From contig JAUVEU010000001.1 in the NCBI GenBank assembly GCA_030594645.1, positions 81,405 to 145,404 of the forward strand: a DNA stretch of 64,000 nt. The letters are read 5' to 3'. Numbering within the stretch: the first letter of the stretch is position 1; each line of letters opens with the position of its first letter. This document shows positions 11,310-27,958 of this stretch, in pieces. The notes beneath the pieces were generated by a model, which was not told where the DNA came from, did not search any database, and was given only the letters and a program-made list of their open reading frames with translations. The position numbers and the translations under genes were made by a program. Source of the DNA: Candidatus Aegiribacteria sp. (GTDB taxonomy: Bacteria > Fermentibacterota > Fermentibacteria > Fermentibacterales > JCC-6).

Positions 11310-12431
11310 CTATTTCTTCGTCTTCTTCTCAGAAGCCGTCTTTTCCTGCTTTTTCTGTCCAAACTCCGTGATATACTCCTCGGTCATCCTTCTGCACTGA
11401 TCATCGTAATACTGAATGGGAGGAGTTTTAAAGAAGTAGGATGACGGAGCTTCGACTGCTCCGGAAAGTCCGTTATCCAGAGCGAGTTTTGCGCATCTTA
11501 CCGCATCTATGATAACTCCAGCCGAATTCGGGCTGTCCACAACTTCAAGTTTGGCTTCAATATTCAGTGAAACCTCACCGAAACTGGTACCTTCCATTCG
11601 GATATAACACCATTTTCTGTCATCGAGCCATGGTATGTAATCGCTGGGACCGATATGAACGTTCCTTGGTTCAAGTCCGCCGGGAAGCTGTGAAGTTACC
11701 GCGTTTGTCTTGGATATCTTCTTGCTTTCAAGTCTTTCACGCTCAAGCATATTCAGGAAATCGGTATTACCGCCGACATTCAACTGGTATGTGCGGTCAA
11801 GCCTTACACCCCTGTCTTCGTAAAGGCGGGTCATGACTCGGTGCAGGATCGTAGCTCCCACCTGACTCTTGATATCGTCACCGAAAACGGGAAGTCCCTT
11901 ATCACGGAACCTCTTCTGCCAGTATTCCTCGCTGGCGATAAATACGGGAATAGCATTCACAAACGCGCAGCCGGCTTCAAGTATCTGTTCAACGTACCAT
12001 TTTGTCGCTTCTTCGCTCCCTACCGGAAGATAACTTACAACAACATCTGTTTTTGTCTCTTTGAGAATACCAACAATGTCAGATGTGGGGCCGGGCGCTT
12101 TTACAATAACTTCCTTCAGATACTTTCCAAGACCGTCATGCGTCATTCCTCTTTGTACCTTAACACCAATTTCAGGAACATCGCATAGTTTCACCGTACA
12201 GTTGGGATCAGCGAATATCGCTTCGCTGATATCCTTGCCAACCTTGGTGACATTGATGTCAAACGCAGCAGAGAATTCAATATCATTAATGTGATATCCG
12301 CCGAGGTTGACGTGCATAAGCCCCGGGACCTTGTCATGATCAGAGGTTTTTCTATAGAACTCCACACCCTGAACAAGACTGCTTGCGCAGTTTCCGACTC
12401 CAATTATCGCTACTCTTACTTTCTTGGACAT
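11310..12431 (-). CDS. Myo-inositol-1-phosphate synthase (inositol-3-phosphate synthase).
   Basis: 373 aa. It has the bacterial/archaeal MIPS N-terminus ([18 protein letters not shown]) and a central NAD-binding and catalytic region ([21 protein letters not shown]). Confidence 0.85.
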
Positions 12432-12482
12432 TCATTGCCTCCCTGAAGGGATTGAAACGTAATTGTAGACGACTTTACGGGA

Positions 12483-13097
12483 TTATTCCTCATCAGTTGA
12501 AATCTCCCTGCCGTCCCTGAATACTTTTACCATTCTCTGACCGGCTGTGAACCATGTTCCTACAGCTAATATGGCCAGTGCAAGCACTATAGCTCTTGTG
12601 TCCCATAATCCCGAAACAACAAGACCCATTATAAGCAATATGAGCCTTTCTGTCCGAGTGACAAGCCCCACTGAGCATGAAAGATTCACTCCTTCAGCTC
12701 TGGCTCTGACATAGCTTACCATGAACGAGCCGCCGATCGCGGCCGGCACAAGGTAAATCAGCTCATGATGAGCGGCTCCCGCTTTTCCAGCAAGAATAGC
12801 CGCAAACATGAATAGCTCACCTATGCGATCACAGCTGGAATCAAAAACTGCTCCAGCTTTACTCTCTATACCCTGCCTGCGCGCAAGTTCCCCATCCATA
12901 GCATCAAGAATGCTACCTGTGATGAAAACCGCGACACCGGCAATATACTTTCCGTCCCAGACAAGCCACGAGGCAACTATTGTAAGAAGAAGACCAAGTG
13001 CCGTAACCGTAAACGGACTTACTCCTGCTAAAACCAGCAGTCTGATAATGGGAATCAGAAGATTTCTACCGGCATTTCTAATACTTTCCAGGTTCAA
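12483..13097 (-). CDS. CDP-alcohol phosphatidyltransferase, likely a phosphatidylinositol-phosphate synthase partner of MIPS.
   Basis: 204 aa membrane protein. It carries the CDP-OH-P transferase motif (DAMDGELARRQG...AVFDSSCDR) and lies immediately downstream of MIPS. Confidence 0.8.
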   Translation of the reverse strand: MNLESIRNAGRNLLIPIIRLLVLAGVSPFTVTALGLLLTIVASWLVWDGKYIAGVAVFITGSILDAMDGELARRQGIESKAGAVFDSSCDRIGELFMFAAILAGKAGAAHHELIYLVPAAIGGSFMVSYVRARAEGVNLSCSVGLVTRTERLILLIMGLVVSGLWDTRAIVLALAILAVGTWFTAGQRMVKVFRDGREISTDEE

Positions 13098-13157: not shown

Positions 13158-13865
13158 TCAATCAAAGTAATCTTCACCGAGTTCCTTCCCGCCAACAACA
13201 AGTGTGATCTCTCCCCGCACCTTTCTGTCACCGAATCGCTTGATAACATCGGTAATATTCCCTCGAATATACTCCTCGTGTACTTTTGTTATTTCCCTTG
13301 CGATACAGACAGGTCGATTACCTAAAACCCCATGCATCTCTCCCAGATACTTCAGGAGATGATGAGGACCAATGAAATATACTATTGAACCACTATAAGA
13401 AGACATCTCTTCAATTTTTCTCTTTCTGGCTCCTATTTTTCTGGGAAGGAAACCCTCAAACGCAAATCTGTCCACTGGAAGACCGGATCCGACAAGTGCA
13501 GTGGTAACGGCTGTTGGACCTGGAATAACTTCAATCCGGTATCCTTCACGCAACGCAATTCTGACAGCTTTAAACGACGGATCTGAAATCCCGGGCATAC
13601 CTGCATCCGAGACAAGAGCGACTGTCAATCCATTTTCAAGGAATTCTTTTAACTGAGGAAGCCTTCCGGCAGCATTATGATCATGGTAACTGTACAGTCT
13701 CTTCGTTTCATTTACAAATTTTGCCGTTCTGCGAGTATCCTCGGCAAACACAGCTGATGCGTTCTCAATTGCCTCAACCGCACGGGGGGACATGTCCCCC
13801 AGATTGCCTATAGGAGTGGCAACCAGTACAAGCTTTCCAGCCTTTTTTGAGATGCCGGTTATCAC
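13158..13865 (-). CDS. rsmI: 16S rRNA (cytidine1402-2'-O)-methyltransferase.
   Basis: The tetrapyrrole-methylase fold N-terminus (LVLVATPIGNLGD) is present. 235 aa. Confidence 0.88.
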   Translation of the reverse strand: MITGISKKAGKLVLVATPIGNLGDMSPRAVEAIENASAVFAEDTRRTAKFVNETKRLYSYHDHNAAGRLPQLKEFLENGLTVALVSDAGMPGISDPSFKAVRIALREGYRIEVIPGPTAVTTALVGSGLPVDRFAFEGFLPRKIGARKRKIEEMSSYSGSIVYFIGPHHLLKYLGEMHGVLGNRPVCIAREITKVHEEYIRGNITDVIKRFGDRKVRGEITLVVGGKELGEDYFD

Positions 13866-14113: not shown

Positions 14114-14298
14114 ATTCCTCCAATCGAACAAATATACAACCAATCGATAATTACGACGATTAACAGTTGAAGGAATGTCTACCGCTTCTCCAGACTCTAT
14201 TGGTACCGGCATCCCTCATTGGTGAGGTTATGGTTCTATTCAAAGTGCTTCAAAGAGTGCTTGAGAACCTTTTCATGTTTCAGCCGGACTGCCCACTG

Positions 14299-15627
14299 TT
14301 ATGCGAACGGAGCCAGGCAGAGTGCATTCTGTATCTTATCGCGTTGTATTGAGGCTACTCCCACTTCATCCGCATAGTCCCTCCAGCGCGATACAACCTC
14401 TCTCACTTCGCCAATTATTGTCTTAACCCGCTCGTGTTTCATTGAAGCAGCCCTGGCGCACATCCTGAAATCTTCCATCGTGAAGTTAGCTCGCTTTCCG
14501 TTCATAGTCATCTGGTGACTGGATGTCCATTTCCCTCCCGGCTGGAAACTGTACGCCATGTCGAAGGCGGGTGCAAGCGACCATTTCCCGGATCTGTTCA
14601 TCAGAAAAGCAATATTCTTGACATGGTCATCCTGGTTTCGGGCAACGATATTGAATACCATCCGTCGAAACTGCTCCTCTACCGCACTGTGAGGCAGTCC
14701 GAGCCGCCGAATAACCTGATATGCCTGCTCATAGCTGTATGCACCGGCCTTGTTAAGATCGAAATGAGCCATCGCAGCAAGGGATTGCATATGGAGCTTC
14801 CCACCGTCAGGCAGCCGGTCGAATCGGCGGGTCATGAAGTGCCGACGGCCACTTTCCTCGAAGAGTCTGCACTCGCTCATCGTGATACCAGAGTCTCTTG
14901 CCATCCTGTGATAAGCATACTCGATGGCCCCGTATCCCTGGGGATCTTCCAGATCCTTATCCTTGTTGCCGCTGACTCCGTCGAACTTGAGAATCCAGTA
15001 CTCGAAACCCTCTACTGCCTTGACCTGACCAGAGCACACTTCGTTGGACTCAGGATTCCAGGCAATCACGGCTTTCGCGCGAGCCCCACCTGCGGATGTT
15101 CCAACTCTAAGGATATCTCTCATTGTATCAGCTTTGCATTTATCTGCAAATGTACCTCGCAAGTTGTCCCGATTCCTGAGAATATCGGACGCCAATTTAA
15201 CCAGTCGATCCACGTGAAGACGGGTTCTCCTTCCGGGCTGTGGACCCATGATGGGAAAGAACTCCAGAGCACCCATTCCCCTCGTTCCAGTGTAGCACAG
15301 GCGTTCCACCGCATTGAACGACTCCGGTGTCCTTCCCTGCGTAGCCAGCCATGCATCAATCAGAGTATTGCCAAACTGGTCAGGTAACGAGTCCGCCAGA
15401 AGACCCGGCAGACCATGAAAGGTGATCAACGGAAGTGCTGAAAACGCATAGACCCGCTCGGACAGCGGCATCATAAGCGGCGCAATCTGAATATCGCTTC
15501 GGGAAAACGACGGTTCATACTGGAATGACGCCGTCTCAGCACTCTCCTCCAGCGCCACCGCACCGATGGTACTACCCCATAGTCTCACCTCGGCAACCGT
15601 GCTCATTCCTGATCTCCCCAGTGCCAT
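14299..15627 (-). CDS. hipA: Type II toxin-antitoxin HipA-family serine/threonine kinase toxin.
   Basis: 442 aa. HipA N-terminal and C-terminal domains are present, including the catalytic loop RNQDDHVKNIAF. Local GC is clearly above the window average. Confidence 0.88.
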   Translation of the reverse strand: MALGRSGMSTVAEVRLWGSTIGAVALEESAETASFQYEPSFSRSDIQIAPLMMPLSERVYAFSALPLITFHGLPGLLADSLPDQFGNTLIDAWLATQGRTPESFNAVERLCYTGTRGMGALEFFPIMGPQPGRRTRLHVDRLVKLASDILRNRDNLRGTFADKCKADTMRDILRVGTSAGGARAKAVIAWNPESNEVCSGQVKAVEGFEYWILKFDGVSGNKDKDLEDPQGYGAIEYAYHRMARDSGITMSECRLFEESGRRHFMTRRFDRLPDGGKLHMQSLAAMAHFDLNKAGAYSYEQAYQVIRRLGLPHSAVEEQFRRMVFNIVARNQDDHVKNIAFLMNRSGKWSLAPAFDMAYSFQPGGKWTSSHQMTMNGKRANFTMEDFRMCARAASMKHERVKTIIGEVREVVSRWRDYADEVGVASIQRDKIQNALCLAPFA

Positions 15628-15956
15628 TTTTCATCTGATTTTACTGCACGTTTGGAGGAAGCTCTCCTTCGATCCTTCCCTTTCAGCCTCAGCAGCTCCA
15701 TTGGTCTGAGGCCTGTTTCAGGAACCAGGCGGTCTACTCCATCTATAAGTTCCAGGACGCGCAGCAGACGAATAAGTGTAGACATCTGAATGTCTCTACC
15801 AGCCTCAATTCGTTCGACTGTTCGCTTGCCCAGCCCAGCCTGCTCGGCTGCATCCGCCTGGGTAATCCCCAGATCCAGACGCCTGCGCGCGATGCGACGG
15901 CCCAGTTCTTCCAGTACCGTTTCAGGCGTCATCTGTTTCTCGATTTTCATTACCAT
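15603..15956 (-). CDS. hipB: HipB-like XRE-family HTH antitoxin.
   Basis: 117 aa with an HTH (LGITQADAAEQAGLGKRTVERIE). It overlaps the hipA start by 25 nt. Confidence 0.8.
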   Translation of the reverse strand: MVMKIEKQMTPETVLEELGRRIARRRLDLGITQADAAEQAGLGKRTVERIEAGRDIQMSTLIRLLRVLELIDGVDRLVPETGLRPMELLRLKGKDRRRASSKRAVKSDEKWHWGDQE

Positions 15957-16198
15957 GACCTCCTGGAAGCAAATTAGTGAATGCTACCATCTCTTCTCGT
16001 AATATACGGCGAGTAATACGTCTGACAAGCTGTAACTCGCACTATGATGCGATATATCTATTCAATTTGTCGTCATATGTGAAGACAGTACTCTTGATTC
16101 ATTAATGAGTAATCGCCAGATATTACTAGTTGTCTGCGGCAATAGCGCTTACTCGACACTAACGACGACTTACGGAAAGAATGCACACTTAAAAACCA

Positions 16199-16262
16199 TC
16201 CGGGGACATCCACTCTATGGTGGGTGTCCCCAAAAAACATGACGCTCTGCTGCGTGTCCCCG
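16199..16262 (+). repeat. Left copy of a ~65 bp inverted element pair (GGGGACATCCAC-TCTAT-GGTGGGTGTCCCC hairpin, then A6CATGACGCTCTGCTGCGTGTCCCCG).
   Basis: This is a near-identical reverse-complement match to 20691..20758, with 2-3 mismatches over about 62 nt. It contains a 12 bp stem with a G.U wobble and three GGGGACA/GTGTCCCC units. It sits at the 5' end of the radical SAM gene. Confidence 0.75.
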
Positions 16263-16356
16263 CAACAAACGTACAATCAAAGTTTGCAAACAGCAATTGA
16301 GGAATGTATTTTCGGGGCGCGTGCTAAACCACGGGAAAGGAATATTTTGAAAACCG

Positions 16357-17765
16357 TACTTGTCTACCCAAGGTACAACTGGATCGAGTACAACGGCCTG
16401 GCTGAACCAATAGGGGTGCTTCACCTCGTCAGCGCGCTGCGACTGGCCGGACAGGATCCAGTATATGCAGATTACTCCTTTTGCAAGAACCTGGATGAAC
16501 TTGATGATCTCTTTGTGAACGCGGGCATGATTTGTATTGCTGTATCAGCAGCTGCAAAACTGGATCGAGCCAGAATCGTTACTGATCACCTGCGGAAAAT
16601 CAATCCTGATGCTTTCTTCGTAGCGGGAGGAGCATATCCAAGCATCTTCCCGGAAAAGTCAATCGAAGAAATGAATGTGGACTGTGTACTTGTCGGTGAA
16701 GCCGAGGAATCCATGGTCGAACTGGCGGAAATCATTGAAAAAGGCGGGGATTTCAGGGAAATCCGCAATCTTGTCTACCGAAATACAGATGGCGAATACG
16801 TAATCAATCAAAGGCGACCTGTGGTAGCTGACCTGGACACAATTCCTTTTCCCGCGAGGGATGTCGTTGATTACGATTCCTATTTCAAAGAAGGCATGGC
16901 CGAATACGGCATGGTTACTACAAGAGGATGCCCTTTCAAATGCATTTACTGCAAACCAAGCACAGACCTCATTTTCGGTGGAGGAATACGATACAGAAGC
17001 GCGGAGAATGTTGTAGAAGAGATTATCGAACTTGCCTCTTTGAGAAATGAGAATTGCCTGAGAATCTTCTTCAAGGATGATACCATCACAATGCATCCTA
17101 CTTCATGGTTTGAGGAATTCAGGGACGGTCTCCGGAATGCAGATATTTCACTTGAATGGCACTGCAACAGCAGAGTCGATACCGTAACCCGTGACAAGGT
17201 CAGGGTAATGGGAGAAAGCGGTTGCCACTGCATCTCGTTCGGTGTTGAGAGCGGAAGTCAGAGAATCCTTGATTTCTATAAGAAAGGTACTACTCCGGAT
17301 CAGGCAGTTGACGCCTTCGAGTGGTGCCATGAATTCGGTATAGAAGCCACCGCCAATCTGATGATAGGTCTGCCGCTTGAAACAGAAGATGATATTCAGG
17401 CAACGTACGACCTTCTTAAGAAACTCAAACCGGATGATATTATCGTCTACTTCTCCACAGCCATCCCGGGGCGATACATACACGAATGGGCAGTGGAAAA
17501 TGATTACCTCGCATGCGACACCAATCCCGAACTTCTTGATCCCGCAAGGAACAGAGCCCATGAAGTCATGAACATGCGTCTTCCTAACCTTTCCGTTGAT
17601 GACGTCATATCATGGAAACACAAGATGGAGCGATACAGAAGCTGGAGAAAAGTAACCAGTTTCAGCAACATACAGAGGTGGGTTGAGGAGCTTCTCGATG
17701 ACCCTGCGCCAGCATCAAAAAAAGCGGGGCGTGTACTGAGAGGATTCCTCGGCCAGGGCGATTAG
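16357..17765 (+). CDS. B12-binding domain radical SAM protein (class B radical SAM).
   Basis: It has an N-terminal cobalamin-binding Rossmann-like domain and a radical SAM CxxxCxxC motif (TTRGCPFKCIYC). The start is uncertain. TTG 16357 with a GGAAAGGAA RBS gives MKTVLVYP. In-frame ATG 16239 and GTG 16224 lie inside the repeat element and would add about 40 aa. Confidence 0.78.
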
Positions 17766-17774
17766 ACATAACGG

Positions 17775-18104
17775 TTGTTAGGGGGCAACAGCAGCATGAG
17801 CATACAATTCAGAAAGAATATCATAATCTTTTGCGGGGCGCTGGTTCTTCGGATAGTATTGGTAACAACTGAGGTATTCTTGAACTTCACAGGCTTCGCA
17901 CTGCATGCTGTTTATGCAATTCTGATACTGTCCATGTTTGTGTTGATCTGGCTTGTTAATTACCCTCTTGTCGCAGAACTCAAAAACAAAGTACTTCGGT
18001 TTTTATCGTGCAGTGGAATAGCTTTGCTACTCACCGGCATGTTCGTGTTGGCTATCGCAATTCAAGGCACTCTTTTCAAGCTCTTAATAAAAGGTTCTTT
18101 TTAA
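17775..18104 (+). CDS. Small hypothetical membrane protein (3-4 TM helices).
   Basis: 109 aa hydrophobic ORF lying between the radical SAM and beta-helix genes. It gives no homology signal. Confidence 0.4.
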   Translation: MLGGNSSMSIQFRKNIIIFCGALVLRIVLVTTEVFLNFTGFALHAVYAILILSMFVLIWLVNYPLVAELKNKVLRFLSCSGIALLLTGMFVLAIAIQGTLFKLLIKGSF

Positions 18105-18119
18105 CATTCCTGAACAATT

Positions 18120-18413
18120 ATGGATCTGTTACTAACAAAAGCTTTTAAGCACGCACCTCGATCCTGTCATTCATCAAGGAATTTGAAATTTAAAAGGCAG
18201 CAAGTTAAGGCTTATCACTCCCCACATATTGCCGGGAGTGAGCACAGCCACTCGAGGTCCGAATTGAAGAGGGCGTTTCATGAGGCGATGTCCCGGCTCC
18301 AGCAGACGGTCCCGAATTACATCAAAGGTCTACCATCGTTCCGGGAAGGGTCGAAACTCAAGCTTGAGGAAATATGTGATGCGGTCGAAAGCCTGGTTGA
18401 ATATCTTGCATAG
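18120..18413 (+). CDS. Hypothetical small basic protein.
   Basis: 97 aa ORF that is co-oriented inside the cassette. No recognisable domain. Confidence 0.3.
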   Translation: MDLLLTKAFKHAPRSCHSSRNLKFKRQQVKAYHSPHIAGSEHSHSRSELKRAFHEAMSRLQQTVPNYIKGLPSFREGSKLKLEEICDAVESLVEYLA

Positions 18414-18555
18414 GGATTTGGATAACCATATCCTGAAAGTATGCGTGTTGCAGTTAGCACTTTTCAGAAGTAGGTTGCAGTCAGTGAATTATCCTGGCTA
18501 ATTGGAATAATCAGCTGGATGAGAGACGCCGGAGTATTTTCAGAGGGGATAGTAT

Positions 18556-20175
18556 ATGCGAATACTACAAATTATCGTAAAAACAATTTTAATCATTTTA
18601 CTTATTCCCTGTTTAAGCTGGGCAGCAACCTACTATGTAGATCAGAATCATCCTGAATCCAGTGATACAAATCCAGGTACAGAATCATTACCGTGGCTAA
18701 CGATTCAGAAAGCTGCCAATACGATTATTGCAGGTGACACGGTGTACATCAAAGAAGGAATCTACAATGAGCAGGTTATACCACAGAATTCAGGAAGTTC
18801 CGGAAACCACATTACATATCTTGCTTATCCTGGCGACACCATCACAATTGATGGCACCGGTATACCATTGCCGGATTGGTATGGAGTGTTTGATATCACA
18901 GGCAAAAGCTATATCAAGGTTTCAGGGTTAAGAGTAATTAACTCCACAGATTCTGGAATTCTTGCATGGGAATCAGATCATATCACAATCGAGAATAACT
19001 ATACCTATAATACGGTTTCCTCAGGCATCGGCGTCTGGATTTGCTCCAATATAATTATTGATGGCAATGAGGTTGAGCTTGCCTGTAATGATGGTATGCA
19101 GGAATGTATTACAGTGGCTGTCACCGATACTTTTGAAGTCATGAATAATCATGTTCACCATGGAGGTCCCGGGACTAATGGAGGCGAGGGTATTGATGCA
19201 AAGGATGGAAGTTCAAACGGGATAGTTTATAAAAACTATGTGCACGATATGAATTCGAACAGATTGGGTATTTATGTAGATGCGTGGGACAAACACACCT
19301 ATAATATTGATGTCTATCAGAATACTGTACATAATTGTGCTCATGGTATTACCGTAGCTTCCGAGGCAGGCGGTCTTCTTGAAAACGTCAGAATTTATAA
19401 CAATATCGCTTACGATAATGAGGAAGTTGGAATCTGGATTGCTAACTGGTCGTTGGCACCACAGCAACCAATGAAGGATATTTTTGTGATAAACAACACC
19501 CTTTACAACAATGGGAATGAATGGGGTGGCGGAATAAATGTGATGAATTCGGATGCGGAGTATGTTGTCATAAGAAACAACATTTGTAGCCAAAACCTGT
19601 CATTTCAAATCGTAATAGAAGATGCCCCGCAAAATCTCTTTGTTGACCATAATTTAATCGATGGGTTTCGTGGATATCCGGGAGAGATTTTCGGCAGCGA
19701 CAGTGTAGTAGGAGATCCTTTGTTCGTGAATTCAGCGGAAGCCGACTTTCATCTGCAGATAAATTCACCTGCCATAGATAGAGGTTCATCTGTTGATGCA
19801 CCGAACTTCGATTTTGATGGAAATACACGACCTCAAGGTGCTGGATATGATATTGGCGCTTATGAATATCTATTGACCGGTGTTGATGAACAATCCAATG
19901 GAACACAATTGATGTTCAGGCTATATCCAAATAATCCAAATCCGTTCAATTCCGCAACTAGAATATCGTACTACATTCCAAGCTCATGTTATGTGACATT
20001 AACCATCTACGATCTTTCAGGCAGGGCAGTTCAAACTTTAGTGAATGAAAGCCAAACTACCGGCAGCCGTTCAGTCGATTTTGATGGCGGTAATCTTTCC
20101 AATGGCGTTTACTTCTACCAGTTGAAAGCAGGCAATGAGTTCGTTGAGACAAGGACTATGATATTGTTACGATAG
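18556..20175 (+). CDS. Secreted right-handed parallel beta-helix (pectate-lyase-fold) protein with a T9SS C-terminal sorting domain.
   Basis: There is a signal peptide and many Asn-ladder repeats (IYNNIAYDN, VINNTLYNNGNEWGGG, IRNNICSQN). The C-terminal Por/T9SS CTD reads LYPNNPNPFNSATRISYYIP...TIYDLSGRAV...NGVYFYQLKAGN. The gene is AT-rich relative to its surroundings. Confidence 0.8.
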   Translation: MRILQIIVKTILIILLIPCLSWAATYYVDQNHPESSDTNPGTESLPWLTIQKAANTIIAGDTVYIKEGIYNEQVIPQNSGSSGNHITYLAYPGDTITIDGTGIPLPDWYGVFDITGKSYIKVSGLRVINSTDSGILAWESDHITIENNYTYNTVSSGIGVWICSNIIIDGNEVELACNDGMQECITVAVTDTFEVMNNHVHHGGPGTNGGEGIDAKDGSSNGIVYKNYVHDMNSNRLGIYVDAWDKHTYNIDVYQNTVHNCAHGITVASEAGGLLENVRIYNNIAYDNEEVGIWIANWSLAPQQPMKDIFVINNTLYNNGNEWGGGINVMNSDAEYVVIRNNICSQNLSFQIVIEDAPQNLFVDHNLIDGFRGYPGEIFGSDSVVGDPLFVNSAEADFHLQINSPAIDRGSSVDAPNFDFDGNTRPQGAGYDIGAYEYLLTGVDEQSNGTQLMFRLYPNNPNPFNSATRISYYIPSSCYVTLTIYDLSGRAVQTLVNESQTTGSRSVDFDGGNLSNGVYFYQLKAGNEFVETRTMILLR

Positions 20176-20241
20176 AAAATGGCTCCGCATAACAATGCAA
20201 ATCAACCTGACAGCAAAGAATTAGGGATGTGGGTTTCACCA

Positions 20242-20664
20242 CTACTTGCCAGGATTCTTCATTCTCCCGAAGATCAGTATCGAAATCCCCGTTCCTGCAG
20301 TAAGCCCTGTTAGAGTACGAAGTATGTTGCTGCTTTCATACGCTGTTTCGCTCTGAACGACACCATCTATGATCAGAGGAATGAGAAACAGTACTCCGAT
20401 CCAGAACGGGATTCGAATGGTATTGGGATACATGAAGGAAATCCCGACAGCAAGGCCGAACCAGAAGGCGGTACACCTTGCGCAGAGTCCGCTCGTTCCC
20501 CATGGCATTTGTATGCATCTTTCAGGTAATCTGTGACAGGTAGCCGACAGAATCGGATCGAAGATCTCTCCGGTTTTTCCCAGGACAGGGAAAGCGACTG
20601 ACAGGAGGAAGAATATTGCGGCGGGGACACCGAGCAGGAGAGCAAGGGTTGTTCTACCCTTCAT
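20242..20664 (-). CDS. DUF2085 family membrane protein.
   Basis: 140 aa with a CHR...R...CARCT motif and 4 TM helices. Its ATG overlaps the stop of an 18-codon uORF inside the right repeat copy (ATGA). Confidence 0.7.
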   Translation of the reverse strand: MKGRTTLALLLGVPAAIFFLLSVAFPVLGKTGEIFDPILSATCHRLPERCIQMPWGTSGLCARCTAFWFGLAVGISFMYPNTIRIPFWIGVLFLIPLIIDGVVQSETAYESSNILRTLTGLTAGTGISILIFGRMKNPGK

Positions 20665-20690
20665 GATTGTCCTAACTTAAAGATTTTAGT

Positions 20691-20758
20691 ACACGGGGAC
20701 ACGCAGCAGAGCGACATGTTTTTTGGGGACACCCACCATACAGTGGATGTCCCTGTGT
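20691..20758 (-). repeat. Right copy of the inverted element pair; it is the reverse complement of 16199..16262.
   Basis: Its reverse complement reads AGGGACATCCACTGTATGGTGGGTGTCCCCAAAAAACATGTCGCTCTGCTGCGTGTCCCCG. It ends 27 nt upstream of the DUF2085 start codon. Confidence 0.75.
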
Positions 20759-20795
20759 TTCAAAATGTTTAAATGTTAGGCCCGGCCCCCAAATG

Positions 20796-22397
20796 TTAAG
20801 GCTCGTCAATCCAGATGATCCTGGTCTGGTTGTCAGGGATGATCTCACCAAGCAGAGAAATGTATCCCGTGACAGCGTCCATCAGAGTCACGCCGACAGG
20901 TACTGATTCATGCTCCAGCATGATATCGTAACCGATATTACCAATAGCAAGGTAACCGGTGGTAACGAACCTGTAAATCATTTCAGGATCGAATGGTTCG
21001 CCGCCTATCAGCATATCTCCTATCTTCTCTCCATCTGGCATCGCCTGATTTCTGATTGCTGTAAGACCGCCGATCTCCATATCACGACGACGTCCCTGCA
21101 TTCCCGTTTCAAGGATTTCCTTGAGTTCCGCTCCGCTCAGTTCGAAAACGAAGAGATCCTCCTCAAATGGAATCGCCTGATATACAATTCTGGGCGTGAT
21201 CAGCCCTCTGGGTATTGCGGCTCTGATACCACCCCGGTTCATCAGAGCAACATCCGTATCAGTGCTCCAGAGCATTGCGTCAGCTACAAGCCTGCCCATA
21301 GGATGCTCGGCATTTCCCCTTGGTATCTGCTCGTTGGCCTCACCGATTATTTCATCCATACCGGCTTCAGCAATGATTCTGAAATTCTCTATCAAATCCG
21401 CGATTTCCTGATCAGGCCAGAATTCATCATGGAGAAGGCTTATATATTCCTCTCCTTCAGGAAGATCGTAGCCAATGAGTGTACCTGATTCGGTATCGAT
21501 AGCCAGCCTGATTCTTCCAATACCTGTTCCATTGGCGTATCCCTGAACCACAATTGTATGGTTTACCGGGCTTACCCATGGTTCTGCAAAACCCAGATGA
21601 ATATGTCCTGAGACGATAAGGTCTATTCCTGAAACCAGACAAGTCAGTTCTACATGGTTCATGCAGAAGTCCTTGGTGTATTCCTCGCCGGCGTTCCATG
21701 CGTCGTACACCCTCTCCAGATACTTGTCAGTGTCTCTGGGCTGACCCAGATGCGAAACGAGAATAATCAGATCGGCTCCCTGCTCCTCTACTTCCCGTAT
21801 GTACCGCTCAGTAGTTTCCACTTCATTGAGAAAGATGTAACTCCCGAGAAGTTCAGGCGTAACCAGTCCATATGTATCAGTCGTATTAAGTCCTATGAAA
21901 GCGATTTTCACACCTTCATAATCCAGAATTTCATATGGCAGAACAGGAGCGGGTATTTCCCCTGTGGTAGAATCCACGAAGTTGGCGCAGATCACAGGGA
22001 AATCAGCCTGTTCGGAAAGATCTATGGCATTATCTGCTCCGTCATCAAAATCATGGTTGCCGAGGGTTATCATGTCATACCCGATTGCATTCATCCATTC
22101 GATGATAAGCTTTCCACTTTCATAATTTCCGGTAGGTGTTCCCTGGTAGATATCACCAGCATCGATCAGCAGGCAGTACTCCCCGTTTTCCAGGCACTCT
22201 TCACGGACTCCATCAACATAAGCGCTTATATATGCGCCTCCGCCTATCATTGGCGGAAAATCAGGATTGAGAAACGAGGCTTCTCTTGGAACGATTCCTC
22301 CGTGTATATCATTGGTATGCAATATATTGAGATATATTGTACCGGCACTTACAGGAAGAATGATTCCCAGTAGCAGTATTGGCAGCAGTCTTTTCAC
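20796..22397 (-). CDS. Secreted bifunctional metallophosphatase / 5'-nucleotidase (UshA-like).
   Basis: Calcineurin-like phosphoesterase motifs are present (ILHTNDIHGG, GNHDFD), followed by a 5'-nucleotidase C-terminal domain. The start is called at GTG 22397 with a GGCGGGAG Shine-Dalgarno site after the upstream TAG stop, giving the signal peptide MKRLLPILLLG. Confidence 0.85.
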   Translation of the reverse strand: MKRLLPILLLGIILPVSAGTIYLNILHTNDIHGGIVPREASFLNPDFPPMIGGGAYISAYVDGVREECLENGEYCLLIDAGDIYQGTPTGNYESGKLIIEWMNAIGYDMITLGNHDFDDGADNAIDLSEQADFPVICANFVDSTTGEIPAPVLPYEILDYEGVKIAFIGLNTTDTYGLVTPELLGSYIFLNEVETTERYIREVEEQGADLIILVSHLGQPRDTDKYLERVYDAWNAGEEYTKDFCMNHVELTCLVSGIDLIVSGHIHLGFAEPWVSPVNHTIVVQGYANGTGIGRIRLAIDTESGTLIGYDLPEGEEYISLLHDEFWPDQEIADLIENFRIIAEAGMDEIIGEANEQIPRGNAEHPMGRLVADAMLWSTDTDVALMNRGGIRAAIPRGLITPRIVYQAIPFEEDLFVFELSGAELKEILETGMQGRRRDMEIGGLTAIRNQAMPDGEKIGDMLIGGEPFDPEMIYRFVTTGYLAIGNIGYDIMLEHESVPVGVTLMDAVTGYISLLGEIIPDNQTRIIWIDEP

Positions 22398-22410
22398 AAT
22401 CTGCTCCCGC

Positions 22411-23643
22411 CTAGATATCAAACACACGGCTGATGGAGAACATGAGCCTTGTGTCTGTTTCCTCTATTGTCAGGCTGTCACCGGAGGTAAAGGAAGGTAA
22501 ACCGGTTATCTCTGTCTGTTTCCACCGGTCAGGCGAGAAACTGGCTCCCATGTCCAGGTTCCAATCACCTATGTGAAAGCCCATCCCTGCAGTAAAGCTC
22601 ATTCTATCCAGTGAGCTGCTCAAGGGAGAGCGGTCGTAGCCAAATCCAAACCTGGCAACAGGTCCGCCTGGAAGCGTGTTCTCAACACCGGCGTGTACTC
22701 CCCAGGAGTTGAAAAGACCGAGATTCTCGTCCTCATACTCCATTGAGCCGTCAGGACTCCAGTAGAATTCACCAGTAAATCTGGACTTCAGACTGTTTCC
22801 GGGAATGTAAATGGAACCAAACCTTACTGTCATGGGAATGTCCAGATCATAATCGGTATCTGAGAAAGTGTTCCAGGATACAGGATCACCTGTTTCTTCC
22901 GGAGAGAAAGAAAGCGGCATCGGATATTCAACCGCTGCGCTTATGAAAACTCTCCTGTCCGGTATGAATAGGATGGAACCCCTGGTCACAATACCTGAAA
23001 CGGTTTCCTCACGTTGGGAGAGGATTCCTTCCTGCGTGGGATCAACATGCATTACTTCCCATGTTACATCTCTTGACCCCGTGATGTATCCTCCTGCAAA
23101 CCCGAAAGCAAGAACCTCGGACGGTGAAAAAGCAACTGCCAGATCAAACTCGTTCCTGATGCCGGATATCTCGAGATTTTCCTCGCCTGTTTTAACATAG
23201 GAATCGTCCCGCACAGTTCTTCCATAACTGTAAGTGAAAGTGCCTGGAACCCTCCATCCGGCGGCAAACGATAAAGCCTCTGGAAGTCCCGCAATGTTCC
23301 GGAAAGCAACTGCGGCACCTCCTGGAACGAAAACAAGGTTCTTGTTGAAAGCATATTCGGATTCACCGATTGAACTGCCGAAAATGTCATAGATCCTTCT
23401 CGTTCTTTTCTCAACAGCGTAGTCCAGACCCGCCGCGATCTCCACCTGAAGACCTTCTTCGGCAATTGCCAGAAGCGCAGGGTTTTCAAGAACCCCGAGA
23501 GCGGATACATCAAGAAAACCGCAGTTCCCCATGCCAAGAGCACTGGCTGAACCGGGCGTTCCTGTTTCACCAAGCCACATAACTTCTGGGAGCCCTGCGG
23601 TAATCGCCATTAATGAAATTATTCCTGCTGCAATGATATTCAT
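22411..23643 (-). CDS. Outer-membrane beta-barrel protein (FadL/PorV-like), hypothetical.
   Basis: 410 aa with a signal peptide, alternating beta-strand patterning and an aromatic-rich C-terminal strand (RLMFSISRVFDI). Confidence 0.55.
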   Translation of the reverse strand: MNIIAAGIISLMAITAGLPEVMWLGETGTPGSASALGMGNCGFLDVSALGVLENPALLAIAEEGLQVEIAAGLDYAVEKRTRRIYDIFGSSIGESEYAFNKNLVFVPGGAAVAFRNIAGLPEALSFAAGWRVPGTFTYSYGRTVRDDSYVKTGEENLEISGIRNEFDLAVAFSPSEVLAFGFAGGYITGSRDVTWEVMHVDPTQEGILSQREETVSGIVTRGSILFIPDRRVFISAAVEYPMPLSFSPEETGDPVSWNTFSDTDYDLDIPMTVRFGSIYIPGNSLKSRFTGEFYWSPDGSMEYEDENLGLFNSWGVHAGVENTLPGGPVARFGFGYDRSPLSSSLDRMSFTAGMGFHIGDWNLDMGASFSPDRWKQTEITGLPSFTSGDSLTIEETDTRLMFSISRVFDI

Positions 23644-23655
23644 ATTTCCTCCACC

Positions 23656-26088
23656 CTACCAGCGGAAATCAAGCTGACATCGGATGCCATAATCTGTTAC
23701 ATGATCGTTGAAATCCCTCACCGGACTGTTCGGATCACCCTCGTAATAAAAGCTGTCATCGGGATCAGGCCTGTAAAGACCGGTGCGGGGATAGAAAGTG
23801 TCCTTTCTGAGTACCCTGAGCCTGAGCTGCAGGTTATCAGACAAAATATTCTTGATGGTTACATAGAATTTGGTTCCATCTCCATCAAGGAAATCTATTC
23901 CAGTATCCTCGAACTCCCACTGACTCATACCGTCCGTGGACCATAGAGTCGTTCCACCAAGAACAGACAGATTCTCACTGAAGTTGTGTTCCCATCTCGC
24001 GGAGATGTAGCCACCGGACAGAAGCCGGTCATCACCATATCTTGGATTTGGAGTAAGTTCAACCATTCCGTACCGGAGCCTGACGTCAAAGTAGTCATGT
24101 CCGGTGGGAAGGAAAAAGGTTCTGAAGGTGAATTCCTGCGTACGCGATGTGGTTGGAATCACGTCATGCATTTTGGTTTTCTCCTGGTATTTGCATTTCA
24201 ATCTGAACCTGACAGGAAAAACAGGGCGATACTCGATCTCCCCCTGAAATCTGTAATTATCAAATCCCCATGGCAGAGAACGCCATATATCAAGATACAC
24301 TTTCGGGAATGTTATCTGCCTGCTCAACTGGAAACGGCTTTCAATGTAGACACCCTCTTCGGGCTTTGGTGTCGGCCATTCCGCAAGCTGCGAAGTAAGC
24401 GGGTCGTTGAGGTAATATGGTTTCTCAAAAACGGTATCATCGTATCTGAGCTGTTCCGCAAATCCACGGTTGTATGGATTAGTAAAGCCGATATCGTAGT
24501 GTCTCCAAATACCGAGCAGATAGAAATAGTCATTCTGCCACCTGGCCCTTGCGAGCGTGGCAATCGACTCGTTATCCTGCCGGACGAATTCTCCCTCAAG
24601 GCTGAAATTATCCAGAATTGTCTGAGCTGAGAAAGCAAGATAAGAGGATGAATTCCCTGCTGCAAGAACATCGTATTCCGGACATTCCCATGGTTGCGCA
24701 TCACCTGGAATATCCATGGTTCCTGAATCCGGAATGAGAGAATCACTGTAGGAAATATTCATGCCGCCTATACCGATCGCGGTCCCGCAGGGAAGGATTC
24801 CTCCAAGGTCAAAGAAACCGTACCCTCCATAAGTTGTTTCCTTTATCACATCAGCATATGGAGAAGTACGTGCAGAAGACATTATCAGAATATTCGGTGT
24901 TCCATCAATGTCTCTTACAGCGTCTCTTGATGCCGATGAATAGAATCCGTATCCAAGGAAAGGTCCCTCATGCATTTCCACGGCTCCACCGATCAAGGCG
25001 AACTGACGTGTTGAGGTAAGATCCGGATATAGTCCCCATGTACCGTAAGTGGAGCGGTACCAGAGCTCATCTGAATTATTCACCATCAGTCCCTGACCAA
25101 GTGATAGATTGTAATTTCCAAGTACGACCTGGTTCACAATACCGATGTTCTCCATCGATACAAAAACTTTGGCGACATCAAACCTTTGATTAAGGTCACC
25201 GAGATCCATATCCGATATCAGATCGAATCCAGCTGTGGAATTTCTTCCCCTGGAGAACCTTGTTCCACCCCGGAACCTGTCTCCAAATCCGACACGTACC
25301 CTGTGCTCCCAGCCGGTAACGTTCTGTGCTCCGAGAAGCTCTTCGTACTCGCTGTCGATTCTTTCAGCCCAGGCCACGCTGTCAGAGTCGGTATATCCTC
25401 TTTCACCGGTTTCTATGTCGTACTTCGCGGATCGAAGGCTGTTGAGCATTTCATATAATCCATCCTCATCAGATGATCTCCCGTCACCGCCATCGACAAC
25501 AACCCTGTAACCGCCGAAGAAATCCATAGAACTCAGGTCAAGTTCGCGGGTTGAAACGTAATCCCGCATATTCCTGTAGCCATAGTAACTCAGGTAATCC
25601 GCGTTTCGGAGTGAGGTAACGCTCGAAACAGGGCCAAGAGTGTTCAGTCTTCGCTCGACAGCCACCGCATCAATCAGACTTACTCTGTCCAGACTTCGGA
25701 GCTGCCACGAAGTTGCTGAATTAATCGGCAGAGGATGCAGAAGGTAATGCTCCCAGAGGTCTACAGCAGCGTCACCAGGGCCGTCCTCTGTAGCAAGTCT
25801 TTCCATTATTTCCAGTATATCGCTGGAAATTCTCCCTTCAGAAGGAGGGACAACCACGCAGTTACCGCGAAGCCACTGCAGTTCCACAGTCGTAAAACCA
25901 GGAATTTCCATAATATCGTAAATATTGAGAAGACCCCCTGTTTCATAAATGAAATCATAGAGGTCAGAGGCCTGTTGAGAATTCAATCCCTCAAGCGCCT
26001 GCAATTCCTGAAGAGATGCGGTATTCAGATCAAATCCGTTCGGGACAGACAAGCCAATAGCAACCGCCAGTATTAAACTAGAAACCAT
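23656..26088 (-). CDS. Large outer-membrane protein with two N-terminal helix-hairpin-helix (ComEA-like) motifs and a C-terminal beta-barrel-like region.
   Basis: 810 aa with a signal peptide. The HhH motifs are DLNTASLQELQALEGLNSQQASDLYDFI and PINSATSWQLRSLDRVSLIDAVAVERR. A long Gly/Tyr/Asp-rich beta region follows, ending ...RCQLDFRW. Confidence 0.6.
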   Translation of the reverse strand: MVSSLILAVAIGLSVPNGFDLNTASLQELQALEGLNSQQASDLYDFIYETGGLLNIYDIMEIPGFTTVELQWLRGNCVVVPPSEGRISSDILEIMERLATEDGPGDAAVDLWEHYLLHPLPINSATSWQLRSLDRVSLIDAVAVERRLNTLGPVSSVTSLRNADYLSYYGYRNMRDYVSTRELDLSSMDFFGGYRVVVDGGDGRSSDEDGLYEMLNSLRSAKYDIETGERGYTDSDSVAWAERIDSEYEELLGAQNVTGWEHRVRVGFGDRFRGGTRFSRGRNSTAGFDLISDMDLGDLNQRFDVAKVFVSMENIGIVNQVVLGNYNLSLGQGLMVNNSDELWYRSTYGTWGLYPDLTSTRQFALIGGAVEMHEGPFLGYGFYSSASRDAVRDIDGTPNILIMSSARTSPYADVIKETTYGGYGFFDLGGILPCGTAIGIGGMNISYSDSLIPDSGTMDIPGDAQPWECPEYDVLAAGNSSSYLAFSAQTILDNFSLEGEFVRQDNESIATLARARWQNDYFYLLGIWRHYDIGFTNPYNRGFAEQLRYDDTVFEKPYYLNDPLTSQLAEWPTPKPEEGVYIESRFQLSRQITFPKVYLDIWRSLPWGFDNYRFQGEIEYRPVFPVRFRLKCKYQEKTKMHDVIPTTSRTQEFTFRTFFLPTGHDYFDVRLRYGMVELTPNPRYGDDRLLSGGYISARWEHNFSENLSVLGGTTLWSTDGMSQWEFEDTGIDFLDGDGTKFYVTIKNILSDNLQLRLRVLRKDTFYPRTGLYRPDPDDSFYYEGDPNSPVRDFNDHVTDYGIRCQLDFRW

Positions 26089-26908
26089 AAGTCACCCCGG
26101 CCTGGTGAGTCAGGTCGAGCTGAGGATGCGTTATTACAGCGTATTCCACTGTAATACCTCTGATTGTTGTATTCAACCCTCCGGATATTGAGACCGGATT
26201 ACTCTGAACCCCTGCCAGGATGTTCACAGAGCCAAGGGGAAGAGCCTGGCCTACATGTATGCGTAAACCATTGAAATCCCTGGAGAAAGTCAATGCCGAA
26301 ATCATTCCGGTGACCGGTTCGTACCTGAGACCTGCGTCTATTCTTCTTCGGAGATATTCTCCACTTTCACCCAGTCTTGCCTGGAAAGGGTTCCTGATGG
26401 AGGCAGCGAGCATCCACCTTCTGTACATTCTAACCTGAAATCCCGCATTGACCGCGAAAGTGCTCGCGCTTCCGTACTCGGAAACACCATCAGAAATAAC
26501 AGCTCTGCAGAAAACAGGCTGGAGACCGAAAGACATATCTTTGGTAAGCATTCCGGCAAAGGTTATCGCCGCCATCTGTTCATTGTAGAGATCACCGCCG
26601 AAATAGCGAATGCTTGCTCCGCAGACCCAGGATTCACTTATCGGAAAGGCTCCATCGATTCCGTATGTTCCGAAATCCATATTCGTAAAAGGGAGCCTGC
26701 CTGATATGGTTACAGATGAAGATGTGCTTCCCGCTATGGATGCGGGGTTGAAAAGAAGCGCTCCGGTTCCATACAGCACAACTCCCGTTCCGCCCATGCC
26801 CTGCGATGTGATCCCTATTTCCATTTCCTCAAATGCCGCCCACGACTGCCCTGCAATGATCAGAAGGGCAAACAGAACCGTAGTCGTTCTCAAATACATT
26901 ATTGCCAC
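26078..26908 (-). CDS. Outer-membrane beta-barrel protein, hypothetical (PorP/PorQ-like size).
   Basis: 276 aa with a signal peptide ending SWA-AFEE, beta-strand patterning and a C-terminal GVTYGF. Confidence 0.5.
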   Translation of the reverse strand: MAIMYLRTTTVLFALLIIAGQSWAAFEEMEIGITSQGMGGTGVVLYGTGALLFNPASIAGSTSSSVTISGRLPFTNMDFGTYGIDGAFPISESWVCGASIRYFGGDLYNEQMAAITFAGMLTKDMSFGLQPVFCRAVISDGVSEYGSASTFAVNAGFQVRMYRRWMLAASIRNPFQARLGESGEYLRRRIDAGLRYEPVTGMISALTFSRDFNGLRIHVGQALPLGSVNILAGVQSNPVSISGGLNTTIRGITVEYAVITHPQLDLTHQAGVTYGF

Positions 26909-26909
26909 C

Positions 26910-27944
26910 TCAATTCAGGGGAGTTGCTACGACGAGAGTTTCAGTCGTTGAAAAGTGCTTTCCATCAGAGTCCACGCCTTCAAGGAGAAGCACATAAGGT
27001 CCGAGTGGAAGAATTTTGTTGTAATCGTCTTTTCCATCCCACTGAACAACGTCACCGGCTGGACGGGATTCCGCGAGATGAGTCACGGCTCTTCCCGATC
27101 TGTCAAAAACAGTAAGAGTAAAACGCATTCCGGCAGGACCGCCGTATTCAAGATTAACGGTTTCGCCAAGTACCGGAGCGAATGGATTACCGGTAAGAAC
27201 TGTAAGGTGAAAACCATCATAAATCGATGGCTGGTATACTTCCAGATCAGTCTGATATCTTGGAAGTAACTGGTATCCGCTATTATAAGGAGGTTCTGAA
27301 TCGTATTGCCCGCCGATGCCAAGCATGAACAGACGGGTACCGGCAGCGATATTGGAAACACTGATTCCAGTAGACTCGTTTACACGAACTGCAACTGAAG
27401 TCTGTCCGTTCCAGACGTTGAAATTGTATCCGCCCCCCGCAGACTCAGGATCATTGGCTACTGTAACCCATTGGGATAGCGAACTGTTTCCCAGAGCGAG
27501 AAGCTGACCTTCGATGCTTTCTGAAACTCCCTGATTCAAAGCCAGCTGAAGCGGCTGAGGCTCACCGGGATGATCGATGTAAACAAAATCCGAAGGTGAA
27601 TCGGGGGATATCTCGGTAAGACCGTTGTACTGCATGATCTCTCCGGTTATCCTCCATTCGTCCCCGGCTTCGATGACTCCCGGACTCGCTGAGCTGTAAG
27701 CGTATACATTTATTCCAGCTGTTTCATCCTGAACATAGAAACTCAGCCCTGTTTCGGAGAACAGCGTTCCCTCACATGTCGCGACCCCTTCTATGGTGAG
27801 GATTTCTCCAAGGTGATCTGGAATTCCATCACCGTTGAGGTCTTCTCTGGCTTCAGCAATCGAAACCGTCTGAGCACCGGCTAATCCTGCAAACAGGATT
27901 AACATCAGAACCGGGAAACTTCTTATCATCGTCTCCCCTTTCAC
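26910..27944 (-). CDS. Secreted protein with an OB-fold-like N-terminal region and a C-terminal FlgD-Ig/T9SS-type sorting domain.
   Basis: There is a signal peptide. The OB-fold-like nucleic-acid-binding pattern is GEILTIEGVATCEGTLFSETGLSFYVQDETAGINVYAY...GDEWRITGEIMQYNGLTEI. The C-terminus reads RFTLTVFDRSGRAV...VLLLEGVDSDGKHFSTTETLVV. Confidence 0.5.
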   Translation of the reverse strand: MKGETMIRSFPVLMLILFAGLAGAQTVSIAEAREDLNGDGIPDHLGEILTIEGVATCEGTLFSETGLSFYVQDETAGINVYAYSSASPGVIEAGDEWRITGEIMQYNGLTEISPDSPSDFVYIDHPGEPQPLQLALNQGVSESIEGQLLALGNSSLSQWVTVANDPESAGGGYNFNVWNGQTSVAVRVNESTGISVSNIAAGTRLFMLGIGGQYDSEPPYNSGYQLLPRYQTDLEVYQPSIYDGFHLTVLTGNPFAPVLGETVNLEYGGPAGMRFTLTVFDRSGRAVTHLAESRPAGDVVQWDGKDDYNKILPLGPYVLLLEGVDSDGKHFSTTETLVVATPLN

Positions 27945-27958
27945 AAGTGAATTAACTG

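Follow-up and report, generated by a model that had tools for sequence, protein, structure and literature searches.

A class B radical SAM gene, a beta-helix gene and a DUF2085 gene with separate histories meet at a variable site of a Fermentibacteria chromosome

Class B radical S-adenosylmethionine (SAM) enzymes such as HpnJ, PhpK, QCMT, BchE and AprD4 join a B12-binding N-terminus to a radical core with a CxxxCxxC motif, and HpnJ acts on a glycolipid. The right-handed parallel beta-helix is the fold of GH120 XylC, GH136 LnbX, PL9 Pel9A and PL6 enzymes, and secreted polysaccharide-degrading enzymes are typical cargo of the type IX secretion system (T9SS). For the membrane protein family DUF2085 (PF09858), the literature that we found holds three incidental mentions only, and no function is known for any member. 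Finally, repetitive extragenic palindromic (REP) sequences, bacterial interspersed mosaic elements (BIME) and palindromic operators are intergenic hairpins, and RAYT (REP-associated tyrosine transposase) enzymes recognise a GTAG-type motif. Here, we analyse a stretch of 64 kb from a Fermentibacteria (Aegiribacteria-like) chromosome, hereafter the window, in which a member of each of these groups lies within a few kilobases: a radical SAM gene, a beta-helix gene with a T9SS tail, a DUF2085 gene and, upstream of the first and the last of these, two copies of a hairpin element. The nearest relatives of the proteins of this region are found in Candidatus Fermentibacteria (Aegiribacteria, Sabulitectum, Fermentibacteraceae).

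The window enzyme shares the B12-binding N-terminus and the CxxxCxxC core of the class B enzymes. Unlike HpnJ, PhpK, QCMT, BchE and HpnR, it scores far below every curated equivalog cut-off and belongs to a group essentially confined to Fermentibacteria. The beta-helix protein has the fold of the carbohydrate-active enzymes named above and, like T9SS type A cargo, carries a type A C-terminal domain; by eye, its N-terminus resembles a signal peptide. The Cys-rich DUF2085 protein matches its family over the full length and is, here specifically, the product of the last gene of a conserved operon. The hairpin resembles REP/BIME palindromes and palindromic operators in being stable, GC-rich and intergenic, in its long and short forms, tandem half-sites and conserved stem ends, and in the recurrence of hairpins with the same ends in other intergenic regions of another genus. 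It differs from them in being present in only two copies in the 64 kb, both 5' of particular genes, and in having no GTAG-type motif; no RAYT gene was seen.

A previous, sequence-only reading of this DNA had treated the three genes and some small membrane open reading frames (ORFs) as cargo of a cassette and as a possible module for the modification of a surface glycan or lipid. The genes that it named are all present, according to the ORF listing and the profile searches. The identities of the genes, their independent evolutionary histories and the conservation of the hairpin are established. We give a probability of about 0.8 to the reading that follows, namely that two conserved blocks of the chromosome converge here on a variable spot, and that the interval is a patchwork of three units with separate histories. 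The first would be an orphan class B radical SAM enzyme, vertically inherited throughout the phylum and paired within the genus with a 102-aa membrane protein. The second would be a beta-helix enzyme that was acquired horizontally and has a putative signal peptide as well as a T9SS sorting tail. The third would be DUF2085, the terminal gene of the neighbouring operon for a solute-binding protein, a helix-hairpin-helix (HhH) protein, an outer-membrane protein and a 5'-nucleotidase. What looked like an attractive 'cassette with cargo' would then be ordinary genome patchwork, not to be carried forward as a biosynthetic or modification module.

Conserved flanks and a variable interval

The comparison included 62 GTDB Fermentibacteria loci with orthologues of the radical SAM enzyme at 60-76% identity; individual related loci are cited below by an L number. 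The interval has conserved flanks, DUF3006 and rsmI at one end and, at the other, the nucleotidase operon with DUF2085. Between them, the more distant genomes L075 and L081 have unrelated genes, for a C25 T9SS peptidase, a GHMP kinase and an aldehyde:ferredoxin oxidoreductase. Compared with close relatives by blastn, the variable blocks of the window are 14145-16201 and 18205-20264. Base composition also changes along the interval: the GC content is 0.40-0.41 in the beta-helix gene, whose AT-richness had been noticed before, 0.51-0.54 in an inserted hipBA pair, and about 0.46-0.50 in most of the surrounding sequence. The features are listed in the table.

Table. Features of the interval and its surroundings (positions in the window)
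Feature	Position	Strand	Basis or remark
Genome-specific HipBA insertion, 2,057 bp	14145-16201		blastn breakpoints
HipA	14299-15627	-	HipA_C 178 bits, Couple_hipA 68 bits
HipB-like helix-turn-helix (HTH) antitoxin	15603-15956	-	HTH_31 41.5 bits; overlaps HipA gene
Left hairpin copy	16202-16262	+	GGGGACAUCCAC, loop, GGUGGGUGUCCCC, then AAAAAACATGACGCTCTGCTGCGTGTCCCCG; 5' of radical SAM gene
Promoter-like stretch, TTTGCAAACAGCAATTGAGGAATGTATTTTCG	16281-16332	+	conserved in L007, L008 and L073
Orphan class B (B12-binding) radical SAM enzyme, 472 aa	16347-17765	+	profiles, orthologue alignment, tree
102-aa protein, three predicted transmembrane helices (by eye)	17796-18104	+	starts 30 nt past radical SAM stop
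Spacer unique to the window	18205-18544		no blastn homology in relatives
T9SS-tailed right-handed beta-helix protein, 539 aa	18556-20175	+	profiles, AlphaFold model, composition
DUF2085 membrane protein, 140 aa	20242-20664	-	PF09858; last gene of upstream operon
Right hairpin copy	20694-20753	-	between 5'-nucleotidase stop and DUF2085 start
Operon ended by DUF2085	20796-29308	-	domains and conserved gene order
5'-nucleotidase/metallophosphatase (operon member)	20796-22427	-	
410-aa outer-membrane-like protein (operon member)	22411-23643	-	weak BamG-like beta-barrel match
810-aa protein (operon member)	23656-26088	-	ComEA-like HhH motif
344-aa and 276-aa proteins (operon members)	between the solute-binding and HhH genes	-	no known domain
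Solute-binding protein (operon member)	27959-29308	-	

A case can be made that the radical SAM enzyme, the membrane ORF(s), the beta-helix protein and DUF2085 form one surface glycan or lipid modification module or a small biosynthetic cluster: the genes are adjacent, the enzyme is uncharacterised, and its gene and DUF2085 share an upstream element and lie close together in other members of the genus. The proposal fails when gene neighbourhoods are compared, a check that the earlier reading had itself suggested, as DUF2085 was found within 10 kb of the radical SAM orthologue in 0 of the 62 loci, and the beta-helix protein gave only short, partial tblastn matches in them. Moreover, DUF2085 keeps its place in another operon; the beta-helix gene, which some relatives have, some lack and some carry elsewhere, has homologues spread across phyla and encodes a fold that resembles degradative carbohydrate-active enzymes; and in one sister genome the radical SAM gene is deleted with the 102-aa gene and DUF2085 retained. 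The idea of a functional module is largely rejected on these comparisons, and we regard it as very improbable. One part that survives concerns the enzyme: an envelope lipid or glycan substrate is plausible because its orthologues often adjoin lipid or glycan genes in other Fermentibacteria, but a three-gene module is unsupported.

The same comparisons bear on the idea that the inverted repeats are the ends of a mobile cassette, or of a non-autonomous transposon, with cargo. Terminal inverted repeats (60 nt, 97%), an adjoining toxin-antitoxin pair and a variable composition speak for such an element. Yet in relatives the radical SAM gene and DUF2085 occupy the chromosomal positions that they have here, both accompanied by a copy of the hairpin element, and the parts that vary are the two blocks given above, which differ from the repeat-bounded segment; therefore, the latter is not the unit of mobility. 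In addition, the searches turned up no transposase domain, and the ends show no target-site duplication. We give this explanation next to no credence.

The radical SAM enzyme and its neighbourhoods

At residues 56-167 of its long ORF, the protein matches the N-terminal, Rossmann-like B12-binding domain PF02310 (41.1 bits; cut-off 32.1), and it matches the Radical_SAM core PF04055 at 90.3 bits. In an alignment of 25 sequences, the window gene and 24 orthologues, the cysteines of the CxxxCxxC motif (C195, C199 and C202) are invariant. Its sequence identifies it as a member of the class B radical SAM superfamily. The start that agrees with the orthologues is the TTG at 16347, not 16357, with GGAAAGGAA as its ribosome-binding site; longer ORFs from GTG 16224 or ATG 16239 were rejected, since the orthologues begin at the equivalent of TTG 16347.

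Among the NCBIfam models, the best match is HpnJ (TIGR03471), which aligns over nearly the full length (residues 62-437) with a score of 170.3 bits against an equivalog cut-off of 577.6. The other equivalogs are further away: PhpK (134 against 600), the QCMT family (128 against 360), BchE (125.4 against 481), HpnR (78.2 against 650) and TsrM-like enzymes (27.4 against 500). By these scores, the enzyme lies outside the characterised clades, and no hopanoid genes occur in the orthologue neighbourhoods surveyed. The nearest solved structures are 9CCB (E 2e-25) and AprD4 (6FD2); the former is QCMT, the MCR glutamine C-methyltransferase, according to a 2026 review (PMC12931638). Outside the phylum identity drops below 50%, and the orthologue group is essentially confined to Fermentibacteria by this measure. 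A literature search on radical SAM enzymes of Fermentibacteria returned nothing relevant.

When the neighbouring genes of the orthologues were clustered, recurrent contexts emerged. In context A (~25 loci), the radical SAM gene follows FTCD, transketolase and a divergent FAD-binding oxidoreductase, and PmbA/TldD lies further on; often, an LpxL-type acyltransferase and a paralogous B12 radical SAM enzyme of 30% identity come after the gene. In context B (~15 loci), it stands between an FGE-sulfatase-like protein, an acyl-CoA ligase and a Polysacc_synt (Wzx-type) flippase on one side and ParE/ParC on the other. Context C (~10 loci) has a short gene on the opposite strand (cluster c12, ~163 aa), followed by genes for a ComEC-like protein and for sugar ABC permeases, and context D, that of a paralogue clade at 61-66% identity, has a GT2 glycosyltransferase, DegT and a formyltransferase after the radical SAM gene. 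In a neighbour-joining tree the clades match these contexts, and the window gene groups with those of L007 and L008 as the sister of the context-A genomes. Since context tracks clade, the gene appears to have been inherited vertically, with rearrangement of its surroundings, and not as the cargo of a cassette.

The LpxL-type homologue of lipid A acyltransferases and the second B12 radical SAM gene lie at 9487-11831 in L006, and the same arrangement was seen in L024, L028-L030, L032 and L036, at ~11.4-13.8 kb. This context, with its FAD oxidoreductase, is the best available contextual clue to a lipid substrate. It is tempting to speculate that the reaction would be of the cobalamin-dependent radical type, most probably a C-methylation, with a membrane lipid or glycolipid as the substrate. 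The recurrent neighbours (acyltransferase, flippase, acyl-CoA ligase, glycosyltransferase) and HpnJ as the nearest model point in this direction, and we put forward an envelope lipid or glycolipid as a tentative proposal for the substrate, with the odds somewhat against it. If so, a vertically inherited class B radical SAM enzyme, present throughout an uncultured phylum and without a characterised relative, would mark unexplored membrane lipid or glycolipid chemistry, because its recurrent neighbours include the acyltransferase, the second radical SAM enzyme, the FAD oxidoreductase, the acyl-CoA ligase and the flippase. Elsewhere in the window, a gene for myo-inositol-1-phosphate synthase adjoins one for a CDP-alcohol phosphatidyltransferase at 11310-13097, ~3-5 kb from the radical SAM gene; the pair is conserved in L008 and suggests the synthesis of inositol phospholipids.

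A few points weigh against our reading, both of the enzyme and of the interval as a whole. Many of the recurrent neighbours of the radical SAM gene are unrelated housekeeping genes (transketolase, ParE/ParC, PmbA/TldD), and the chemistry and substrate proposed for it are a weak case of guilt by association. Within the genus, moreover, the pair formed by the radical SAM gene and the 102-aa gene stays within 2-5 kb of DUF2085, and both carry the hairpin. A regulatory or functional link between the radical SAM gene and DUF2085 through the hairpin, limited to the genus, is thus possible.

The locus has a natural deletion variant. In the sister genome L073, the equivalents of 16281-16332 and 17739-18204 are directly joined (L073 12440-12560), so the sequence equivalent to 16333-17738, almost the whole radical SAM ORF, is missing at the locus. 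The deletion is clean and has spared the hairpins, the promoter-like region, the final 27 nt of the gene, the 102-aa gene and DUF2085, which makes this genome a ready comparison. The promoter-like stretch was not among the promoters listed by the scan tool; we infer its role from its resemblance to the sigma-70 and Bacteroidetes-type consensus sequences.

Of the small membrane ORFs that had been placed in a transcript with the radical SAM gene, one stands and one does not. The 102-aa gene is conserved in the genus and specific to it, with tblastn and blastn matches only in L007, L008 and L073/L074; in L073 it has outlived the deletion just described. The 97-aa ORF at 18120-18413 has no relatives among 1.84 billion representative proteins, most of it falls inside the spacer unique to the window, and neither ORF nor spacer has a match in Pfam, NCBIfam, PADLOC or Rfam. 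This ORF was therefore set aside as probably not a gene, and a gap of 450 nt separates the beta-helix gene from the gene upstream of it.

The beta-helix gene and the nucleotidase operon

The beta-helix protein combines Beta_helix repeats with a Pel9A-like N-terminal cap, a choice-of-anchor Q domain and the C-terminal domain of type A T9SS cargo. The tail, at residues 461-534, matches PF18962 (Por_Secre_tail) with 35.8 bits against a cut-off of 27 and TIGR04183 with 37.5 against 23. In the AlphaFold model (pLDDT 91.6), a C-terminal beta-sandwich occupies residues 467-537 and a helix residues 2-15, where the N-terminus MRILQIIVKTILIILLIPCLSWA|ATYY looks by eye like a signal peptide. Other proteins with a Por_Secre_tail are numerous in the related loci.

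A check of the fold by structure had been proposed, and the nearest folds proved to be those of carbohydrate-active enzymes. Foldseek with the model returned GH120 XylC, the GH136 lacto-N-biosidase LnbX, PL9 Pel9A and rhamnogalacturonan lyase, and PL6 lyases, with E-values from 3e-11 to 1e-8. The window protein is distant from the solved enzymes, at 14-18% identity and TM-scores of ~0.5 (for 1ru4, 0.48 and 0.63 at 18% identity). In sequence, only its N-terminal cap (50-75 residues) is matched by PDB entries, the Pel9A-like Pfam match is limited to residues 22-78, and the PelN model NF041899 gives 35 bits against a cut-off of 740, so that the protein does not qualify as a full-length PL9 member. 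Judging from the model, it is probably a polysaccharide hydrolase or lyase. It would be secreted or displayed at the surface and would break down an external polysaccharide; export by the T9SS and the depolymerisation of such a polysaccharide are what we would bet on, with some reserve.

The history of this gene differs from that of its neighbours. Its core of ~440 aa is 60-75% identical to proteins of Bacteroidales, WOR-3, Thermoplasmata, Pacearchaeota, Anaerolineae and Aminicenantes, and the homologues in other phyla carry different C-terminal anchors. Closer to the window, the unit 18545-20186 recurs at ~90% nucleotide identity in L077 and L079, which makes three different contexts with that of the window. 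The mobile unit has the size of the ORF, its homology running from ~11 nt before the ATG to 11-47 nt past the stop (window 18545-20222; L077 563-2200; L079 9996-11658 and 13340-13674). The copy in L077 adjoins an extra 481-aa T9SS gene and an MNT/HEPN-like pair, and the one in L079 lies in an entirely different neighbourhood. L073/L074 have no beta-helix gene, and only the 481-aa T9SS gene occupies the site. The low GC content, the relatives of the core in other phyla and the varying presence and location in close relatives argue that the beta-helix gene is a horizontally acquired, independently mobile accessory gene. In L079, the adjoining T9SS gene has the same coding sequence for the C-terminal domain (86% nucleotide identity), and shared T9SS tail sequences may serve as substrates for recombination.

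DUF2085 is convergent with the beta-helix gene, as the previous reading had it, and belongs to the opposite block. The protein matches PF09858 with 72 bits against a cut-off of 25, over profile positions 1-89 of 90, and includes the Cys-rich stretch CHRLPERC...CARC. In seven distinct loci, DUF2085 comes last after the same series of genes, at 57-100% identity and with gaps down to 19-27 nt; it follows the 5'-nucleotidase in L072, L073/74, L075/76, L077/78, L080 and L081, and in L080 an FAD oxidoreductase is inserted before it. Genome JAGLOY01 carries DUF2085 on contig 5 and has its two copies of the radical SAM gene elsewhere, on contigs 74 and 81. DUF2085 would act with the HhH protein, the outer-membrane protein and the 5'-nucleotidase of its operon, which recurs in Aegiribacteria-like genomes and, to judge from the predicted members, could scavenge extracellular nucleic acid or nucleotides.

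The hairpin element and the neighbouring HipBA insertion

The earlier observation of a shared upstream element 5' of the radical SAM gene and DUF2085 holds, and the element is conserved in the genus. Its inverted repeat arms, 16203-16262 and 20694-20753, are 60 nt long and 97% complementary, with 0 such pairs expected by chance, and both copies have the same orientation relative to their own downstream gene. In the element, a GC-rich hairpin of 12 bp (GGGGACAUCCAC, loop, GGUGGGUGUCCCC) precedes a stretch of ~30 nt with a second GUGUCCCC at its end; the element has a folding energy of -30.9 kcal/mol and a z-score of -4.9. Orthologous copies are found at both sites. On the radical SAM side, L008 has the long form and L007 the short form, the hairpin only; on the DUF2085 side, L072 has the long form, L074 the short form and L077 extra direct half-sites. 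The element is absent in L075. These comparisons identify the hairpin as an older, genus-wide element at two sites, not the ends of a mobile cassette.

In the relatives, the inner stem is GCA/TGC on the radical SAM side and CCAC/GTGG on the DUF2085 side, the stem being kept in every version, and in the window both copies have the DUF2085-type stem. The left and right copies of the window agree at 58 of 61 positions, against only 52-54 of 62 between each copy and its own orthologue in a relative. Because the two window copies match each other better than they match their orthologues, they have been homogenised in this lineage, probably by gene conversion between the inverted copies. A genus-specific hairpin that lies at two promoter-proximal regions and is homogenised in one genome offers a testable case of concerted evolution, and possibly of co-regulation.

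Recombination between the arms could also have made the 4.4-kb segment between the inverted repeats invertible, so that DUF2085 and the radical SAM gene would exchange places behind the nucleotidase operon. The arms are long, nearly identical and inverted, their homogenisation implies recombination between them, and the genes inside the segment oppose the orientation of almost all other genes of the window. Nevertheless, a single orientation was seen in 9 of 9 independent contigs that span a junction, in the order DUF3006, element and radical SAM gene in L007 and L008 and in the order nucleotidase, element and DUF2085 in L001, L002, L072, L073, L074, L077 and L078. No recombinase was found among the ORFs of at least 150 aa within ~10 kb on either side, and some relatives have only the 28-30-nt hairpin form. 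An invertible segment is, on this evidence, most improbable.

A different role for the element would be that of a shared cis-regulatory site, an operator or an RNA element, that co-regulates the pair of the radical SAM and 102-aa genes with DUF2085 in the genus; such a role is compatible with a patchwork origin of the region. It lies in both 5' regions with a constant orientation relative to the genes in five distinct relatives, its stem is preserved through different bases, the extra direct half-sites of L077 resemble operator arrays, and non-coding GGGGACA clusters are confined to these two sites and one other lineage in a census of 1.2 Mb of Fermentibacteria loci. Against this, hairpins with the same ends and different interiors are repeated in unrelated intergenic regions of L003 and L009, as is more typical of REP, more distant relatives lack the element, none of the nearby genes encodes a regulator, and the element has no Rfam match. 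A scan of 15000-22000 with E-values up to 1 gave no Rfam match at all, with no known riboswitch or small RNA and no cobalamin riboswitch. Co-regulation is unlikely in our view, if well short of fanciful. The element may serve both genes as an operator or RNA site, or it may be a REP-like repeat of low copy number, two possibilities that 64 kb are insufficient to separate. A bolder version is a long shot: the hairpin would be an undescribed cis-regulatory site that couples the radical SAM/102-aa pair to DUF2085 as a conditional partner, for the supply of metal, cobalamin or substrate, and its near-identity would be kept by selection or by recurrent recombination, possibly with occasional inversion.

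The hairpins of L003 (13836-14030 and 16200-16360), also present in L009, are tandem and intergenic, have GGGGACA...TGTCCCC ends, and stand in this other genus upstream of a DUF5128 gene and of an operon for an Fe-dependent repressor and FeoAB. Together with those of the window, they may represent one family, of REP-like elements or of binding sites, that extends through the phylum. The census found intergenic GGGGACA clusters only at the two window-type sites and in the L003/L009 repeats. The only other cluster lies inside the coding sequence of rsmI, where GGGGACATGTCCCC, a perfect palindrome at 13786-13799 that encodes GDMSP and is also present in L007, reproduces the half-site of the hairpin; this is probably a coincidence. 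An exact metagenome-wide search with a conserved 20-mer of the element gave two matches, both coincidental and in unrelated contigs of high GC content.

Two further roles were considered for the element and rejected. An intrinsic terminator does not fit, as A's come after the stem on one strand and T's before it on the other, and the scan made no call. An ATG inside the element opens a short ORF (M-S/T-L-C-C-V-S-P...) at 16239-16262 and 20694-20717 and in L072 at 9953-10003; its TGA overlaps the ATG of DUF2085 in the right copy and in L072, and in the left copy the reading frame continues into that of the radical SAM enzyme. A coding function was dismissed, as the differences in L072 are all nonsynonymous, the number of codons ranges between 8 and 18, and the ORF lacks a ribosome-binding site.

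Next to the left hairpin lies the genome-specific insertion. Homology to L007 and L008, whose radical SAM enzymes are 97% and 92% identical to that of the window, extends across rsmI and DUF3006 as far as 14143/14144 and is picked up again at 16280 (L007) or 16202 (L008), which points to a recent insertion. The two genes inside it have no match in any related locus, and their domains and arrangement make them a HipBA type II toxin-antitoxin pair. Membership of a defence system was considered and dropped, as PADLOC gave weak HipA-like matches only. The pair sits exactly between the DUF3006 gene and the left hairpin, and in L077 DUF2085 has a different toxin-antitoxin-like pair (NTP_transf_2 and a 147-aa protein) inserted beside it; accessory genes seem to accumulate at this spot.

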